From assembly GCA_963762145.1 (NCBI GenBank), contig CAVXJS010000019.1, positions 1 through 64,000 on the forward strand: a stretch of 64,000 nucleotides of DNA, in the 5' to 3' direction. The position numbers and the translations under genes were made by a program. The number at the start of each line of letters is the position of its first letter. The stretch's first letter is position 1. Origin of the DNA: an uncultured Candidatus Rokubacteria bacterium. Lineage in GTDB: Bacteria > Methylomirabilota > Methylomirabilia > Rokubacteriales > CSP1-6. The notes beneath the pieces are model-generated. The model was not told the DNA's origin. It saw only the letters and a program-made list of their open reading frames with translations, and made no database searches. Below, piece after piece: positions 48,336-54,588 of this stretch.

Positions 48336-49682
48336 TCAGCCCTCGATCAGCTCCACCCGGAACAGCGCGCCCGGATCCTCGACCGCGACCAGGTGGTGGA
48401 TCGTGAACTCGTAGGCCTCACCCGCGCGCAGGTCGGAGGGCGAGAAGGGGAACGCGAGGTTGCCCGCGATCGCCTGGCGGCCGGGATAGGTCACGTGCAA
48501 GGCCACCGAGCGCGCCAGGGCCAGGACGGCGGCGGAGGTCTCGGGGTCGTCGGCGATCACCTCGATGATGAGGCCGATCTCGTGGGGCCGCCCGTGGCGC
48601 ACCGGCTCGAGCGGGCCCATGACGCCGTCGCGGCCGTAGACGTGGAACATGAGCCGATAGCCGTCGGGGTAGGTGTCGGCGACGCGCGTGCGCACGTTGG
48701 CGAGGTAGGCGTCGAGGTTGGCGATGAGCTGGGGCTCGCGTACGCCCGCGATGGACAGCGTGCGGAAGCCGACGCGCGTGACGCCTTCGAGCTTGAGCGT
48801 CGGGGTGGCGGCGGGGACGAAGCGCGTGCCGGACACCCGCACCGCGCGATCCCCGGAAGGCTCGAAGCGCGTGGCCTTGAGGTCGATGTGCCCGTGGGGC
48901 AGGTGGAGCTCGTAGGGATTGGCCCGCTCGTAGAGCGAGTGCGCGGCCACCGAGGCCACCGTGCAGACCTTGTCCGGGTTCGGCGGCTCGACCGTGAAGG
49001 CGTCGTCCTCGATGACGCCGAGCAGGCTGTCCGAGCCGTGCCGCGGATAGGCGGCGGCCCCGCCGCATTCGAGGATCTTGCCCATGTGCAGCGCCAGGCC
49101 CGGGTCGAAGCCGGCCCGGATGGGAAAGGCCGCGATGACCGCGGCGTCGCACGCGCGCCCGGCGATGACCACCTCCGCGCCGGCGTCGAGGGCGGCCAGG
49201 AACGGCTCCACGCCCATCTGGGCCACGATGCGCGCGGCCCCATCCACGTCGGCGGCGGTCAGCGCGCGGTCGTGGTCGAGCGGGCGCACCCGGCCGCCCG
49301 CGACCTGCGTCCGCAGCCAGCCGCGATCCACCTCGGCGTCGATCACCGCGGTGCGGAAGCGGTAGCCCCGCTCGCGGCAGAGCTCGCGGTAGAGATCGAG
49401 CGTCCACTCCAGGTGCGGGCGGCCGCCACCCCCGCCCGCGGAGCCGATCAGCACCGGGATGCGCCGGTCGCGCGCGGCGTCGAGGATCATGGTGAGATCG
49501 CGCTTGGCCGCGCGGCGGTTGACGAACGGCACGCCCGCGCCCAGGTAGTAGGGACCGGGATCGGTCGAGCCGGCGTCGAGCGCGAGGACCGCCGGGTCGC
49601 GGGCGAGGCCGCGCTCCATGGAGCGGGCGGGTATGCCGTAGCCGAGCATGCCGAGCGGTGCCAGGACGGTCATCGGCTGCAT
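48336..49682 (-). CDS. AtuA/DUF1446-like (acyclic terpene utilisation family) protein
   Basis: DAGSTDPGPYYLG; AQMG; GRACD; HMGKILECG; AAHSLYE. Confidence 0.8.
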   Translation of the reverse strand: MQPMTVLAPLGMLGYGIPARSMERGLARDPAVLALDAGSTDPGPYYLGAGVPFVNRRAAKRDLTMILDAARDRRIPVLIGSAGGGGGRPHLEWTLDLYRELCRERGYRFRTAVIDAEVDRGWLRTQVAGGRVRPLDHDRALTAADVDGAARIVAQMGVEPFLAALDAGAEVVIAGRACDAAVIAAFPIRAGFDPGLALHMGKILECGGAAAYPRHGSDSLLGVIEDDAFTVEPPNPDKVCTVASVAAHSLYERANPYELHLPHGHIDLKATRFEPSGDRAVRVSGTRFVPAATPTLKLEGVTRVGFRTLSIAGVREPQLIANLDAYLANVRTRVADTYPDGYRLMFHVYGRDGVMGPLEPVRHGRPHEIGLIIEVIADDPETSAAVLALARSVALHVTYPGRQAIAGNLAFPFSPSDLRAGEAYEFTIHHLVAVEDPGALFRVELIEG

Positions 49683-49693
49683 GGAGAGCTCCC

Positions 49694-50020
49694 TCAGACG
49701 GGATCCGGCCACGGGATCGCGTGGCCGGCGAGCGGGACGTGCTGCTGCGCTCCGTACACGTCGGTCTCCCCGACCGCGCCGGAGGGCCACGGGCGGCGCA
49801 GCGTGATCTTCACCGCGAACGCCGGCTCGAACTCGATGATGTCGACGACGTCGTCGGGCGAGATGCCGTAGAGGCCGGCCACCGTGGCGCGGTCGAGCGG
49901 CTGCCCGGCCACGAACCGGCGGTAGGTCGCCTCGTCCGGGAAGACGATGTCGAGGGTGAGGAGGAACGGCCCCGCATTCTTGCTCGTCACGAACGTGGCG
50001 ATCTCGCCGATGGTCTTCAT
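49694..50020 (-). CDS. DUF4387-like small protein
   Basis: SKNAGPFLLTLDI ... DVYGAQQH. Confidence 0.8.
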   Translation of the reverse strand: MKTIGEIATFVTSKNAGPFLLTLDIVFPDEATYRRFVAGQPLDRATVAGLYGISPDDVVDIIEFEPAFAVKITLRRPWPSGAVGETDVYGAQQHVPLAGHAIPWPDPV

Positions 50021-50073
50021 CGCGAGGCCATCGCACCACTCCGGCCCTGCGCTGTCAAGAGACGGGCGGCGCC

Positions 50074-51492
50074 TCAGTCCGGAAGCGGCGGGCGCCGCGC
50101 GTGCCACTCGGTGGCGCGCTCGTAGGCGCGGGCCGCGCGGAGCAGCGTCGCCTCGGCGAGACGCCGGGCGATGAGCTGCAGGCCGATCGGCAGCCCGCCG
50201 GTCGTGAATCCGCAGGGCAGGGAGAGCGCGGGCACGCCGGCCAGGCTCGCGGGCGTGGTGTAGGAGCGCCGGTTGAAGAAACGCCGCCCCGCCTCGGCGC
50301 GCGAGGTGATCGGGGCCTGGGCGCTGGCGATCGGCGGGGCCGGCGTGGGCCCGGTGGGCGCCAGCAGCACGTCGAAGCGCGTCAGCGCGCCCTCGACCTG
50401 CGCGCGGATCGCCCCGCGGGCCCGCGCGGCCTGCTGGCCGAGCGTGGCGGGCAGCAGCGCCGCGGTGACGAGCCGTCGGCGCGTGCCGGGATCGTACTCG
50501 TCGCCCCGGGTGGCCAGGGTGCGGTGATGCCAGGCCGCCGCCTCGCCGTCCGCCAGCGCCATGAAGACCGCGCCGGCCAGGGGCAGCAGCGGCAGGGCGA
50601 CGTCCTCCACCCGTGCGCCGAGGCGACGGAGCGTCTCGGCGGCCTCGCGGACCGCGGCGCGGACGGCGGCGTCGGTGTCCGGACTGTCGACGAGCTGGGT
50701 GACGACGCCGATCGAGAGGCCGGCGACGCCCCGCTCGAGCTCTCCCCGCGGGTCGGAGGGCGCGGCCTGCGCCCACCGGTCGTGGCCGTCGGGGCCCGCG
50801 ATGATCGAGAGGAGCAGCGCCGCGTCCTCCACCGAGCGGGTCAACGGGCCCGGCGCGTCCATCGACCACGCCACCGGCACGCAGCCCGAGCGCGGGACCA
50901 GGCCCCAGGTGGGCCGGAGCCCGACGGCGCCGCACCACGAGGCCGGGCTTCGCACGGAGCCGCCGGTGTCCTCGCCGAGGGTAGCCGCGGCGAGCGCGGC
51001 CGCGGCCGCGATGCCGGAGCCGGAGGAGGACCCGCCCGTCTCGCGCGTCTGATCCCATGGGTTGCGCGGCTGGCCGAAGGGGTGGGTGAGCGTGCCGCCC
51101 AGCGCGAACTCGGTGAGGTTCAGCTTGCCGAGCAGGATCCCGCCCGCCGCGCGGAGGCGCGCCACCACCGTCGCGTCCTCGATCGGCACGCGGTCGGCGT
51201 GAAGCCGCGAGCCCGAGGTGGTGCGCACGCCCGCGGTGTCGAACTGGTCCTTCACCGCGAACGGCACCCCGTGGAGCGGCCCGAGCGCCGCGCCGCGGGC
51301 GAGCGCCTGTTCCGCGGCCCGGGCCTCCGCGAGCGCACTCTCCCGACAGACCGTGACGTACGCGTGGAGGGTGGCATCCCAGCGGTCGATGCGCGCGAGG
51401 TAGGCCTGCACCACCTCCACCGGCGAGACCGAGCGCGCGCGGATGAGCCCGGCCAGCTCGGCCGCGGTCCGATAGGCGAGATCCGTGGTCAT
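50074..51492 (-). CDS. Amidase signature family enzyme (GatA/AtzE-like)
   Basis: VKD; GGSSSGS; EDTGGSVRSPA. Confidence 0.92.
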   Translation of the reverse strand: MTTDLAYRTAAELAGLIRARSVSPVEVVQAYLARIDRWDATLHAYVTVCRESALAEARAAEQALARGAALGPLHGVPFAVKDQFDTAGVRTTSGSRLHADRVPIEDATVVARLRAAGGILLGKLNLTEFALGGTLTHPFGQPRNPWDQTRETGGSSSGSGIAAAAALAAATLGEDTGGSVRSPASWCGAVGLRPTWGLVPRSGCVPVAWSMDAPGPLTRSVEDAALLLSIIAGPDGHDRWAQAAPSDPRGELERGVAGLSIGVVTQLVDSPDTDAAVRAAVREAAETLRRLGARVEDVALPLLPLAGAVFMALADGEAAAWHHRTLATRGDEYDPGTRRRLVTAALLPATLGQQAARARGAIRAQVEGALTRFDVLLAPTGPTPAPPIASAQAPITSRAEAGRRFFNRRSYTTPASLAGVPALSLPCGFTTGGLPIGLQLIARRLAEATLLRAARAYERATEWHARRPPLPD

Positions 51493-51683
51493 CCGCGGTG
51501 CGGGAGATCGGGCGGCGCGATGGGGGCCGGCTCGGCGCCGGCGAGGTCGAGCGCGGCGAGGCCGCCGAGCACCTCCACGAACGCGTTCAGGCGGTGCGTC
51601 ACCTCGGCCAGGTCGGGGCCGTCGAGCGGCAGGCCGGCGGCGGCGGCGAGCGCGCGGACCTGGTCGGGAGTGAGCTCGATCAT
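51489..51683 (-). CDS. GatC/AtzG-like small amidase partner
   Basis: 64 aa, LTPDQVRALAAAAGL...LDLAGAEP; overlaps the amidase start. Confidence 0.7.
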   Translation of the reverse strand: MIELTPDQVRALAAAAGLPLDGPDLAEVTHRLNAFVEVLGGLAALDLAGAEPAPIAPPDLPHRG

Positions 51684-51772: not shown

Positions 51773-53485
51773 CTAGGCGGGCCCGAGATCCTCCGCGGCG
51801 TCGGCCAGCAGCCGCTCGAATGACGGCGGGAGGTCGATCGGGCGGCCGACCACGCCCGGGCTGTAGCCCTGCAGCCAGTAGCTGTTGGTCGGGTGACCGC
51901 CGCCCGCCACCACGATCACGAAGTTGTCGGGGCTCGCGGTGATCGGCCACGGATCGAGCGCGAGGCTCTCGCGGGCCACCTTGCTGGTGTCGATCTCGAT
52001 CCACGCCGCACCGCCCGCGCGGCGGAGCGCCTCGGCGGGGATGCGGGAGTGCTCCCAGAGGAACTGGCGCATCGAGGCCTTGGTCCAGCCGAGGCCGGCC
52101 ATGGTCTGCGCGACCACGCCCGGGATCATCAGGATACCCGGGGTGCCGTGCTCGTAGCCGGCGAGCCCGGCCATGTTGGGCACGCGCATGAAGTCGGCCA
52201 TGCGGTGCATGCCCTGGAGCGCGTCCTCCTCGGGCGTCTCCTTCTTGGCGCCGCGCCGGCGGATGTTCGTGGCCCCGTTGGCGAAGGCGAGGGAGATCGA
52301 GCTCTCGCCCGGCGCGAAGCCGTGGCGCTCGGTGCCGTGGGGCGCCCATCCCGGGGGCAGGTTGGCCTCGTCCTCCGCGAAGACCACGTTCGTGTAGCGC
52401 AGGCCGCCGTAGTTGGCCATGGTGCCGATGCCGGGCAGGGCGCCGCCGAGGTTCTGCTGCAGCAGGCGCAGCGCGCGGCCGATGCTCGCGCCCGCCGGCC
52501 GCTGCGGATCCGGGCCGAGGCAGCCGAAGCCGGCGTTCAGCCGGATCCGAGCGCCGATCGGCCCGTTGACGATCACCACCGGAAACGCGCTGCCCGACGC
52601 GGCCTGCAGCGCCTCGCTTCCCGACTCGGGATCGAGGAAGGCCTCCACCGCCGCCACGAGGACCGGGAGGTACTCGGGCCGCCCGCCCGCCATCGCCAGC
52701 GCGATGGCGCACGACTCGACCGTGGTCACGCCGCCCCGCGGGGGAAAGGCGCCGAGCTTCCGCCCGCGCGGATGCGCGGCGCCGGCGAGGATCCAGTCCA
52801 CGCGCGCCCGCGTCGGGGGCCAGAGCGGCAGGCCGTCGCCCCAGCGGTTGGCGAGCATCAGGTGGTTGGCGCGGGCGAGCGCGTCCTCGACGCTCGCGCC
52901 CTCCACGGAGATCATGGGCGCCTCGCCCGCGGCGTCGCGGTCGAGAGCCGAGCGCCAGCGCGTCAGCCCGTCGTAGAACTCCTGCTTGCGCGCCTCCACC
53001 GGGGTGATGTCGCTGCCCGGCAGGAACATCTCGATGGGGAAGGTGACCATCGCCGCGTCCGGGGCCAGCCCGAGGCCGGCCACCGCATTCGTCATCACGC
53101 CGACGAAATCGGCCCGGGTGAGCGTGACCGTCGGGATCCCCTGGGCTTCGAGCCTGGCGGCCGACCGGCCGCACGCCGTGGCGCAGGTCCCTCAGGCGGC
53201 GTTGCCGATGATGACGGCGTCGACCCCGCTCGCCTTGACGAGCGCCGCCGTCTCCTCCGAGCCGATCACCGCGTTGCCTTGGGGGAAGGCGTCGATCGGC
53301 AGGACCTCGATGCCGGGGAAGTCCGCTTCGAGCAGCGCCTTGAGCAGCGGCAGCATGCGGTAGGCCTGCCACTGCTCGTTGCTGACGAAACCGATCCGCT
53401 TGCCGGCGAGCGCGTCGATGCGCGGGGCGTGGGGCTGCTTCACCTCGATGGCGCCGGAGGGGTCGTGGAACTCGAGGGTGATCAT
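51773..53485 (-). CDS. UGSC-family selenoprotein (Sec at UGA 53192-53194, U-G-T-C) fused to a DGLP..PPT domain
   Basis: ORFs 53192-53485 and 51773-53098 are in frame and separated only by TGA; readthrough gives GNAA-U-GTCATACGRSAARLEAQGIPTV. Confidence 0.85.
53157..53172 (-). promoter_or_regulatory. Bacterial SECIS-like hairpin
   Basis: GCGGCC-GGUC-GGCCGC, separated from the UGA by 19 nt. Confidence 0.75.
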
Positions 53486-53556: not shown

Positions 53557-54588
53557 ATGACCATCACGATCTTCGGCGCTGGCGCGATCGGAGGCACCAC
53601 CGGGGCCGCCCTGGCCCAGGCGGGGCACGACGTGCTCCTGGTGGACAGCAACGCGGAGCACGTCGCGGCCATCAATGCCCAGGGCCTCACGGTGGAGCGC
53701 GAGGGCAAGACCACCACGACGCGGGTCCCCGCGGTCCTGGCCCGGGATCTCGGTGACGGCCTGGATCTCGTGATGCTGGCCGTGAAGAGCCATCACACGG
53801 AGGACGCGCTCGGTGTGCTGGTTCCGAAGCTGGCGGCGGGGAGCACCGTGGTGTCGCTGCAGAACGGGCTCAGCGAGGAGCAGATCGCCCGCGCGGTGGG
53901 CCCGGCGCGCACCGTCGGCTGCCTGGTGAACTGGGCCGCGGACTGGGTGGCCCCGGGGCGCATCCTCCACGGAGGCCACGGGGCCTTCGTGCTGGGCGAG
54001 CTCGACGGCCGGATCACCTCTCGCGTGAAGGATCTGGCCGCGCTGCTGAGCGCGGTGGAGCAGACGCCGGTCACGGACAACATCTGGGGCTACAAGTGGG
54101 GCAAGCTCATCTACGGGGCGCTCCTCTTCGGCACCGCGGTGGTGGACGCCCACGTGTACGAGGTCGTGGAGCGGAGCCACGGCGTGCAGCAGGCGCTGGT
54201 GGGGATCGTGGGCGAGGGGCTCGCGGTGGCCGACAAGGCGGGGGTACGCGTCGAGCCCTTCGACGAGTTCGATCCGGCCTGGTACCGCGCCGCGCTGGCC
54301 GGGGACACGAGCGCGCGGACGCGCGCGATGACCGCCATCGCCGCGCACTACCGCGCCCACACCAAGACCAAGACCGGCATCTGGCGCGATCTCGCGGTGC
54401 GCAAGCGCAAGACCGAGGTGGACGGCCAGCTCGGCATGCTCGCGCGCAAGGGCGAGGGCCTCGGCGTGGCCATGCCGCTGACCCGACGGCTCGGCGAGCT
54501 GATCCGCGATCTGGAGGACGGCCGCCGGCAGATGGACTGGGCCAACCTCGATCCGCTCGTCGCCCTCGCGGGCGGGGCGCGCGCGTGA
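53557..54588 (+). CDS. Ketopantoate reductase family (ApbA/PanE-like) oxidoreductase
   Basis: GAGAIGG; AVKS; SLQNG; KTEVD. Confidence 0.85.
   Translation: MTITIFGAGAIGGTTGAALAQAGHDVLLVDSNAEHVAAINAQGLTVEREGKTTTTRVPAVLARDLGDGLDLVMLAVKSHHTEDALGVLVPKLAAGSTVVSLQNGLSEEQIARAVGPARTVGCLVNWAADWVAPGRILHGGHGAFVLGELDGRITSRVKDLAALLSAVEQTPVTDNIWGYKWGKLIYGALLFGTAVVDAHVYEVVERSHGVQQALVGIVGEGLAVADKAGVRVEPFDEFDPAWYRAALAGDTSARTRAMTAIAAHYRAHTKTKTGIWRDLAVRKRKTEVDGQLGMLARKGEGLGVAMPLTRRLGELIRDLEDGRRQMDWANLDPLVALAGGARA

Follow-up and report, generated by a model that had tools for sequence, protein, structure and literature searches.

A predicted two-domain selenoprotein of the UGSC family, divided by annotation at an in-frame TGA, in a Candidatus Rokubacteria genome

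Introduction

The locus 51773..53485, on the minus strand of a 64,000-nucleotide stretch of contig CAVXJS010000019.1 from an uncultured Candidatus Rokubacteria bacterium (assembly GCA_963762145.1; the whole stretch is hereafter called the window), shows two open reading frames (ORFs) separated by a TGA triplet, and raises the question of whether this triplet ends one gene before another begins or encodes selenocysteine (Sec) within a single gene. A preliminary description of this DNA proposed the second: one fused Sec protein with a U-x-x-C motif, followed by a hairpin acting as selenocysteine insertion sequence (SECIS), which standard gene callers split in two. The data presented here indicate that 51773..53485 is almost certainly one two-domain selenoprotein gene, cut in two by ordinary annotation. 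Its N-terminal domain belongs to the UGSC family and its C-terminal domain, here named X, is an unnamed partner. Taken jointly, one Sec gene, a SECIS, the UGSC-X architecture and the packing of both domains make a likely explanation of the locus.

UGSC-containing proteins were described in 2007 as selenoproteins of unknown function, with Hyphomonas neptunium named as a carrier (PMC1976440). In the Global Ocean Sampling (GOS) data they are a major selenoprotein family, with 255 Sec and 21 Cys sequences, and in 2008 a thioredoxin-like fold was guessed for them and some were found fused to a conserved domain named Unknown_1 (PMC2398784). In their available text, reviews of 2022 (PMC9312934) and 2026 (PMC13188914) still list UGSC without a function, and a full-text literature search on UGSC selenoproteins returned, in the text available, no functional study. 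The statement of the preliminary description that these proteins have no established function agrees with the accessible parts of the literature from 2007 to 2026 (PMC1976440, PMC9312934, PMC13188914).

Results

One reading frame across the TGA

The features of the locus are as follows:

51773..53485, minus strand: whole coding sequence (CDS) of the predicted 570-residue selenoprotein; start codon ATG 53485, stop codon TAG 51775-51773; co-linear with 575-aa Cys homologues (65% identity, 100% coverage)
53192..53194, minus strand: in-frame TGA, predicted Sec codon U98; sole stop within the frame, Cys in homologues, kept in orthologues
53183..53185, minus strand: TGC, C101 of the U-x-x-C motif, probable resolving cysteine; invariant in the UGSC-domain alignment
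53192..53485, minus strand: N-terminal 97-aa piece of the table-11 ORF listing, ending at the Sec codon
51773..53098, minus strand: 441-aa piece of the table-11 ORF listing, from the internal GTG 53098
53033..53467, minus strand: UGSC domain (PF24696), residues 7-151, flavodoxin-like alpha/beta, Sec-bearing
51776..53032, minus strand: domain X, C-terminal ~420 residues (residues ~152-570), unnamed partner with the motifs WGDGLPxxPPT, IVNGP, IGRAxRL and FAExE

From the ATG at 53485 the frame shows 97 codons up to the TGA at 53194-53192, and between this TGA and the GTG at 53098 there are 31 in-frame sense codons (53191-53099) with a G+C content at third codon positions (GC3) of 0.94. Translation of the TGA as U gives a protein of 570 aa with U98 in the context GNAA-U-GTC-ATACG. 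Re-reading of the minus strand reproduced all the frame and hairpin coordinates of the preliminary description. The Pfam model of UGSC (PF24696) matches this protein with 75.7 bits (cut-off 25) and its match runs across the TGA; a six-frame search of the genome places it at C19:53033-53467, with 71.5 bits and 1 TGA.

The best 120 database relatives are of two kinds. Sixteen of them are proteins of 575-577 aa, with 100% coverage and the UGSC domain, and 12 full-length 575-aa homologues drawn from these 16 were aligned: all 12 show Cys at position 98 (GNAA-C-GSC) and run on past this position. The other 104 are proteins of 425-457 aa which span only the downstream 74-80% of the query. The closest named relative, P0052, comes from a Methylomirabilota genome and shows 89% identity.

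A search of 151 genomes of the order (E<=1e-60) found a match in 28: 27 of 126 genomes belonging to the same family and none of 24 belonging to other families. Twenty-two of the matches are full length and each contains exactly 1 TGA. Among orthologue loci that contain the N-terminus, the TGA is at the identical codon in 24 of 24 and is never replaced by TAA or TAG; this count excludes six loci without the N-terminal part (L064-L069) and one piece without a locus. Their motif is UGSC in 19 and UGTC in 5, and the window gene shows UGTC. The 31 codons from the TGA to the GTG are conserved as protein among the orthologue loci. In an 11-row alignment of the UGSC domain (A5), which includes seven copies from the same genome, C98 (equivalent to U98), G99 and C101 are invariant.

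In contigs from public sequencing runs of soil, drawn from three DNA studies and an RNA library, 53192-53194 shows no alternative letter, and hence neither the TGC nor the TGG that the preliminary description had named as a finding that would overturn it. The TGA is bridged by X5 record 14, X1 record 3 and the RNA-library contig X15 record 10, and the same contigs vary at 53188 (Thr/Ser) and synonymously nearby. X15 (192 nt, 10 differences) was considered as transcription of the window gene and rejected, as it comes from a relative.

A pair of ordinary genes, one for a 97-aa protein that stops at the TGA and one for a 441-aa protein with GTG 53098 as its start codon, is very unlikely. It would agree with the table-11 listing, which gives both pieces, with the 104 relatives recorded as the downstream piece, and with the use of TGA in the window, where it terminates 7 of the 17 coding-like ORFs and is otherwise a stop. 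Against it, the UGSC model crosses the TGA, the intervening codons are conserved as protein with their high GC3, the Cys homologues are continuous, all 24 loci keep TGA and not another stop, and the Sec machinery is present (see below). The crossing UGSC match and the continuous Cys homologues are what was to be expected of the single fused Sec protein first proposed. The proposal that gene callers split it is borne out by the short database relatives and by the X family at large: 13 of 18 other database X proteins with an N-terminal extension start with the post-UGA part of UGSC, and a thioredoxin fusion was seen in none of the 18. Therefore the split mis-call of UGSC-X genes is systematic, and the downstream piece fills databases as 'hypothetical protein'.

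Selenocysteine machinery

The genome (6.26 Mb in 25 contigs, 88% complete) contains all four Sec genes, selA, selB, selC (tRNA-Sec) and selD, above cut-off, as the preliminary description had predicted:

C9:753857-755209: selA, 577 bits, above cut-off
C9:751777-753660: selB, 363 bits, above cut-off, adjoining selA
C9:756633-756726: tRNA-Sec (selC), 69.3 bits, 1.4 kb from selA/selB; assigned by ARAGORN as SeC with anticodon TCA
C11:419505-420437: selD, 341 bits, above cut-off, with an in-frame TGA

The selD gene at C11:419505-420437 is probably itself a selenoprotein gene, because of its in-frame TGA. A second selD, at C14:136744-137655, contains no TGA.

Candidate SECIS hairpin

One further feature lies downstream of the TGA:

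53156..53174, minus strand: candidate SECIS core; pair G53174-C53156, bulged U53173, 6-bp stem 53172-53167/53162-53157, loop GGUC 53166-53163

The perfect 6-bp hairpin first reported here (GCGGCC/GGUC/GGCCGC, 53172-53157) is present and starts 19 nt past the UGA. Beneath the upper stem there is a bulged U, presumably as in the E. coli fdhF element. According to the available text of a recent review, the bacterial SECIS (bSECIS) model comprises a stem of 4-16 bp with a loop of 3-9 nt, G in the first two loop positions, 16-37 nt from UGA to loop and a minimum free energy of at most -7.5 kcal/mol (PMC13188914, Fig. 2 legend). The window hairpin, checked as the preliminary description had advised, lies within all four limits of the model as published there: a 4-nt loop on a 6-bp stem, GG, 25 nt and -12.5 kcal/mol (PMC13188914).

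Comparison of the 24 orthologues shows that the six stem pairs are invariant, except for one mismatch in one sequence. The seventh (outer) pair, set off by the bulged U (columns 27-45), is G-C in 14 orthologues and A-U in 10, and both of its sides are synonymous third positions. Of the stem cells, 99.4% pair, compared with 15-78% for slid partners, and the covariation score was reached by none of 500 shuffles. Third-position entropy in the Sec forms is 0.23 bits in the eight hairpin codons and 0.72 elsewhere. The corresponding values in 11 alphaproteobacterial Cys-form genes, which show no common hairpin, are 1.16 and 0.92 bits. On these alignments, the synonymous sites in the hairpin are frozen in the Sec forms only. 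The Burkholderiales-type Sec forms (L085, L088, L090 and L092, and L086 of the unpublished genome G182) also keep a hairpin in this position, whose loop is of 6 nt.

Several results weigh against the hairpin as a SECIS. The 19-nt core is better than most shuffles (-12.5 kcal/mol, z -2.22, 6 of 200 shuffles equally good), but the 76-nt stretch is not (z 0.22, 114 of 200 equally good), and a perfect 6-bp hairpin starts 8-30 nt downstream of 52 of the 657 TGA triplets on the minus strand. Taken alone, the hairpin is near chance, or weakly above it, in this GC-rich DNA, so that the case for a SECIS rests on the comparison. The compensatory pair may in turn rest on few events, with related genomes and the A-U form mostly in one genus, and no SECIS family was found by an Rfam scan of 52900-53400 (E<=10), whose eight rows were all at chance level. 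The GGUC loop, which the preliminary description had stressed for its likeness to fdhF, is not conserved: the loop is GGGC in 20 orthologues, GGUC in only 3 of the 24 and GUGC in one. With these points considered, the sequence comparison supports the hairpin as a candidate SECIS that would direct Sec decoding.

Readthrough of the UGA with another residue, by near-cognate Trp or Cys or by local recoding without SelB, is the least probable reading of the codon. In its favour, the inserted residue is read here from sequence and no Rfam SECIS family matches. Against it, the position is Cys in the homologues without UGA, the U/C-x-x-C motif is that of a family catalogued as selenoproteins in the available text of two sources (PMC2398784, PMC13188914), the hairpin fits the bSECIS model and is constrained in UGA forms only, and the genome has all four Sec genes.

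The seven typical UGSC copies of the same genome (L072-L077 among them) share another SECIS, whose 9-bp stem begins 10 nt past the UGA and bears a 3-nt loop containing G-U; compensatory changes are seen from copy to copy. UGSC copies with two SECIS types are thus present, and therefore the SelB of this genome seems to serve two hairpin types inside one protein family.

The UGSC domain

The window protein shows U-G-T-C at the U/C-G-S-C motif of the family, and it scores 47 and 50.5 bits with the NCBIfam equivalog model NF041046, below its cut-off of 125. The best of the 11 aligned UGSC rows reaches E 2.2e-41 with the same model; therefore, by these profile scores, the window gene is a divergent UGSC branch and not an equivalog. 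The label 'UGSC-type' given at first stands as to the family, by Pfam, and has to be narrowed as to the type: this is a divergent member with UGTC where 19 of 24 orthologues have UGSC.

The model of the UGSC domain of a Cys orthologue (predicted local distance difference test, pLDDT, 86.6) shows the order b-a-b-a-b-a-b-a-b, with residue 98 between the strand 90-96 and the helix 99-114. Its fold neighbours are periplasmic binding protein lobes (Z 9.7), receiver domains and the N-domain of dehydroquinate synthase (Foldseek E 1.8e-4), which in this model appear to be generic flavodoxin-like or Rossmann-like lobes. Thioredoxin-fold entries are absent from the fold-search rows shown for this domain. 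Profile searches against PDB sequences gave nothing meaningful for UGSC (A5; best E 0.024, SdhA, 40 residues) and no clear relative for X (A2; best E 0.48).

Domain X

In the window protein and 16 scanned relatives, X shows no Pfam or NCBIfam family, and UGSC is the sole family above cut-off. At E<=0.001, 3467 cluster representatives match X. Its AlphaFold model has a pLDDT of 93.2 and a predicted template modelling score (pTM) of 0.92. A Foldseek search of solved structures (best E 1.8e-3, template modelling score 0.23, class I fumarate hydratase) and a VIA-align all-against-all structural search (best Z 5.2 over 93 residues) found no clear match, which does not prove the fold new.

Nearly invariant in X are D217, G218, P220, P223, T225, N307-G308-P309, G336-R337, E371, E373 and W380. 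A C-terminal tail G-C-G-x-x-x-C-x-[ILV], which may be a mobile redox arm, is found in the proteobacterial orthologues (L078-L099; Sec forms L090 and L086 as well as Cys forms) and is absent from all 22 orthologues belonging to the window genome's own family.

Pairing of UGSC and X

The same genome contains eight UGSC loci, with 1 TGA each, and eight X loci, paired one to one. Fusion in the order UGSC-X is seen in four of them: the window gene, C11:389018, C7:194740 and a copy on C14 (C14:370101-371656). The remaining four consist of separate genes, with X ahead of UGSC and the two either overlapping or separated by 3-13 nt. The C14 copy is divided among several reading frames, as four X pieces and two UGSC pieces, and may be a pseudogene or an assembly error.

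Proteobacterial genomes were reached through the Cys and Sec orthologues. In four published ones, 26 of 26 UGSC matches are fused or adjacent to X, and with the unpublished G182 as fifth the count is 34 of 35, the sole exception being at a contig end. In the phylum sample of 61 genomes (a tally that includes the unpublished G056 and G032), 45 contain UGSC, among them all 32 belonging to the window genome's family, with 2-12 copies each; all 150 listed UGSC matches carry one TGA, and there are 71 further matches beyond those listed. In the protein Atlas, three of the four nearest X clusters shown have PF24696 in 16-41% of their members. As judged from these gene arrangements, UGSC has X as a fixed partner in every case checked.

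An unusually large expansion is found in a Rhodospirillaceae genome (G180, which holds L089): it contains 18 UGSC copies, each of which has a TGA and a fused or neighbouring X.

Contact between the domains

Docking of the two halves of the Cys orthologue P0076, cut at 150/151, gives a score of 0.86, and the best of 3 controls gives 0.00. In the docking benchmark, 116 of 157 solved complexes attained this mark, as did 2 of 215 mismatched pairs. The runs share at least 84% of contacts, with a partner pLDDT of at least 87. No solved relative was found for either half, so that this result is unlikely to reflect a known complex in the predictor's training. The modelled interface contains, on the UGSC side, residues 95 and 97, beside the Sec/Cys position, and on the X side residues 223-226, 248-253, 261-265 and 341-348, overlapping its most conserved motifs (P223-T225, 249-253 and 341-348). 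The model suggests, with fair though not full assurance, that UGSC and X form one working unit with the Sec at the interface.

Gene context

Directly downstream of the selenoprotein gene, the region 48336-51683 (minus strand) contains a 64-aa ORF without family, an AtzE-family-like amidase gene (below the equivalog cut-offs), a DUF4387 gene and a gene encoding an AtuA-family protein. The locus of the closest relative (L044) has a methyltransferase gene where this block lies, and the block therefore looks like a local insertion. On the other side, a ketopantoate-reductase-family gene (53557-54588, plus strand) is divergent and 72 nt from the selenoprotein start codon; it is kept in L044 and none was seen in other loci with 1.5-kb flanks.

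Elsewhere the UGSC-X neighbours are mixed: TctC, branched-chain-type ABC, TRAP, MFS and SBP_bac_5 transporters, CoA-transferase III, M20 peptidases and LysR/IclR regulators. The gene neighbourhood was considered as a clue to the substrate and rejected: neighbours are not conserved, and therefore the context gives no substrate.

Discussion

Kinship with selenoprotein B subunits

The Sec-bearing half of UGSC is probably, from profile comparison, a distant relative of the selenoprotein B subunits. Five NCBIfam selenoprotein-B models (GrdH, GrdF, GrdB, PrdB and an umbrella model) match residues 71-124 with E 0.001-0.005. An hhalign comparison of UGSC (A5) with 20 GRDB-family selenoproteins of the phylum (A9) places Sec on Sec in an alignment of 83 columns, at a probability of 93.3% and E 2.7e-7, and the lE..GIPT strand and the P..H/G..G segment after the Sec align too. 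The value against a single GRDB sequence is 29.6%. X was considered as a relative of the GRDB-family proteins and rejected, as its control comparison with A9 gives 0.6%.

A separate GRDB-family selenoprotein of the same genome is found at C8:71662-72807 (L100/L101), with U-P-F-C, one TGA and a PF07355 match of 32 bits. GRDB-family relatives with one TGA are present in 41 of the 61 sampled phylum genomes (including the unpublished G056).

Proposed chemistry

In GrdB/PrdB, a second subunit holds the substrate that the selenol attacks, and the adduct is resolved by a nearby Cys; this second polypeptide is substrate-specific. A corresponding sequence of steps can be proposed for the window protein. 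The UGA at 53194-53192 is almost certainly decoded as Sec by the genome's own SelA, SelB, tRNA-Sec and SelD, probably directed by the hairpin 19 nt downstream. X, by analogy with GrdB/PrdB, would bind a small imported organic substrate. The selenol of U98 would act on this substrate; its most probable role, on the pattern of GrdB/PrdB, would be that of the nucleophile in a reductive cleavage. C101 would then make a selenenylsulfide with U98, which a cellular thiol system would reduce again. Such GrdB-like reductive chemistry is put forward tentatively, as an analogy with somewhat less than an even chance of being right.

The analogy can be extended to UGSC and X together as a large and undescribed class of two-part selenium-dependent enzymes with GrdB/PrdB-like selenol chemistry and many substrate-specific paralogues. 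This extension is speculative and its truth doubtful. Its diversification would be seen in the 8 copies of the window genome, the 18 of the Rhodospirillaceae genome and the 2-12 per sampled genome of the family. To this reading also belongs the frequent position of UGSC-X copies next to uptake systems, for amino-acid-like compounds and small organic acids.

A number of observations speak against these readings of the unit and its chemistry. The selenoprotein-B models give only 15.8-17.9 bits against cut-offs of 65-800 and are mutually related; the UGSC domain does not reach the family cut-offs of TIGR01918, TIGR01917 and TIGR04483, and PF07355 (GRDB) is absent from its matches. The link is, by sequence profile, remote, and covers only ~83 columns. 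NF041046, as shown above, stays below cut-off. In the docking model, the contact residues named do not include positions 98 and 101, and the docking counts are rough, as the run used a custom alignment; its two partners are moreover halves of a single natural chain. The block of 64-aa ORF, amidase, DUF4387 and AtuA genes is kept in none of 21 same-family loci (1.5-kb flanks), and among 22 proteobacterial loci none keeps the window neighbours, with one TauD-like gene as the sole shared neighbour. No cysteine is among the nearly invariant residues of X. The fused homologues P0210 (CGASS) and P0216 (IGGSL) have lost C-x-x-C, so that, on their sequences, X may work without the Sec/Cys redox pair.

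These last two observations bear on another account of the protein, in which UGSC is an electron relay only, a thioredoxin-like carrier of a disulfide or selenenylsulfide that re-reduces or regulates X, and X performs a non-redox catalysis at its own acid/base residues (D217, T225, N307, R337, E371 and E373). This account is possible, though less likely than not. The lack of C-x-x-C in some fused homologues agrees with it, as X may then be catalytic alone, and so do the nearly invariant residues of X, which are acids, Arg and Asn and include no Cys. The same lack of Cys also stands against it, as X contains no conserved cysteine for a relay to reduce, and the detectable kinship of UGSC is with GrdB/PrdB, where the Sec acts on the substrate. 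From the literature, a thioredoxin-like redox role was guessed in 2008, and the preference for Sec in the GOS data (255 Sec, 21 Cys) suits a catalytic nucleophile rather than a relay (PMC2398784, in the part available).

Significance

According to the available text of the sources, UGSC is among the commonest selenoprotein families of environmental bacteria (PMC2398784), whose functions are largely uncharacterised (PMC13188914). The window provides a clean example of a systematic mis-annotation, a fixed partner domain and, through the kinship with selenoprotein B, a chemical lead. The partner X has a confident predicted structure and no solved relative was found for it. Natural Cys-form fusions are present in Alphaproteobacteria and could be expressed without selenium machinery, which makes the function testable. 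If the class reading is true, aerobic soil and water bacteria would carry a whole family of selenoenzyme reductases whose substrates have never been sought, and the 570-residue fusion would be a ready-made single-chain representative of the class.

Comparison with known systems

The window gene is a divergent member of the known UGSC family with its own SECIS, and no new kind of system. As in the UGSC family (PF24696/NF041046), it scores above the Pfam cut-off and shows U/C-G-S/T-C after a beta strand, in a group with mostly Sec over Cys. It differs from the typical UGSC proteins in four respects: it has UGTC, it is without the usual C-terminal PHPIxG helix segment, its UGSC is N-terminal to a fused X whereas the typical protein stands alone with ~170-180 aa, and its SECIS is unlike the 9-bp-stem type of the 7 typical copies in the genome. 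The UGSC/Unknown_1 fusion (PMC2398784, Figure S1A) is alike in joining a UGSC selenoprotein to a conserved domain without known function; the available part of that paper reports a fusion and not a constant pairing of two families, and its Unknown_1 may or may not correspond to X.

The candidate SECIS agrees with the bacterial consensus in being a small hairpin within the CDS, with G-G/U opening a 4-nt loop, 25 nt from the UGA. It differs from this consensus and from fdhF in its upper stem of 6 bp, all G-C, and in its GGUC loop, which is not conserved.

The comparison with GrdB, GrdF, GrdH and PrdB (PF07355, TIGR01918) shows the same U-x-x-C after a strand; next come a helix that closes with lE..GIPT and a P..H/G..G segment. 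In contrast, the family models remain far below cut-off and the partner X shows no relation to the GRDB-family proteins; the hosts of the window protein are soil and water bacteria, whereas those of GrdB/PrdB are amino-acid-fermenting clostridia.

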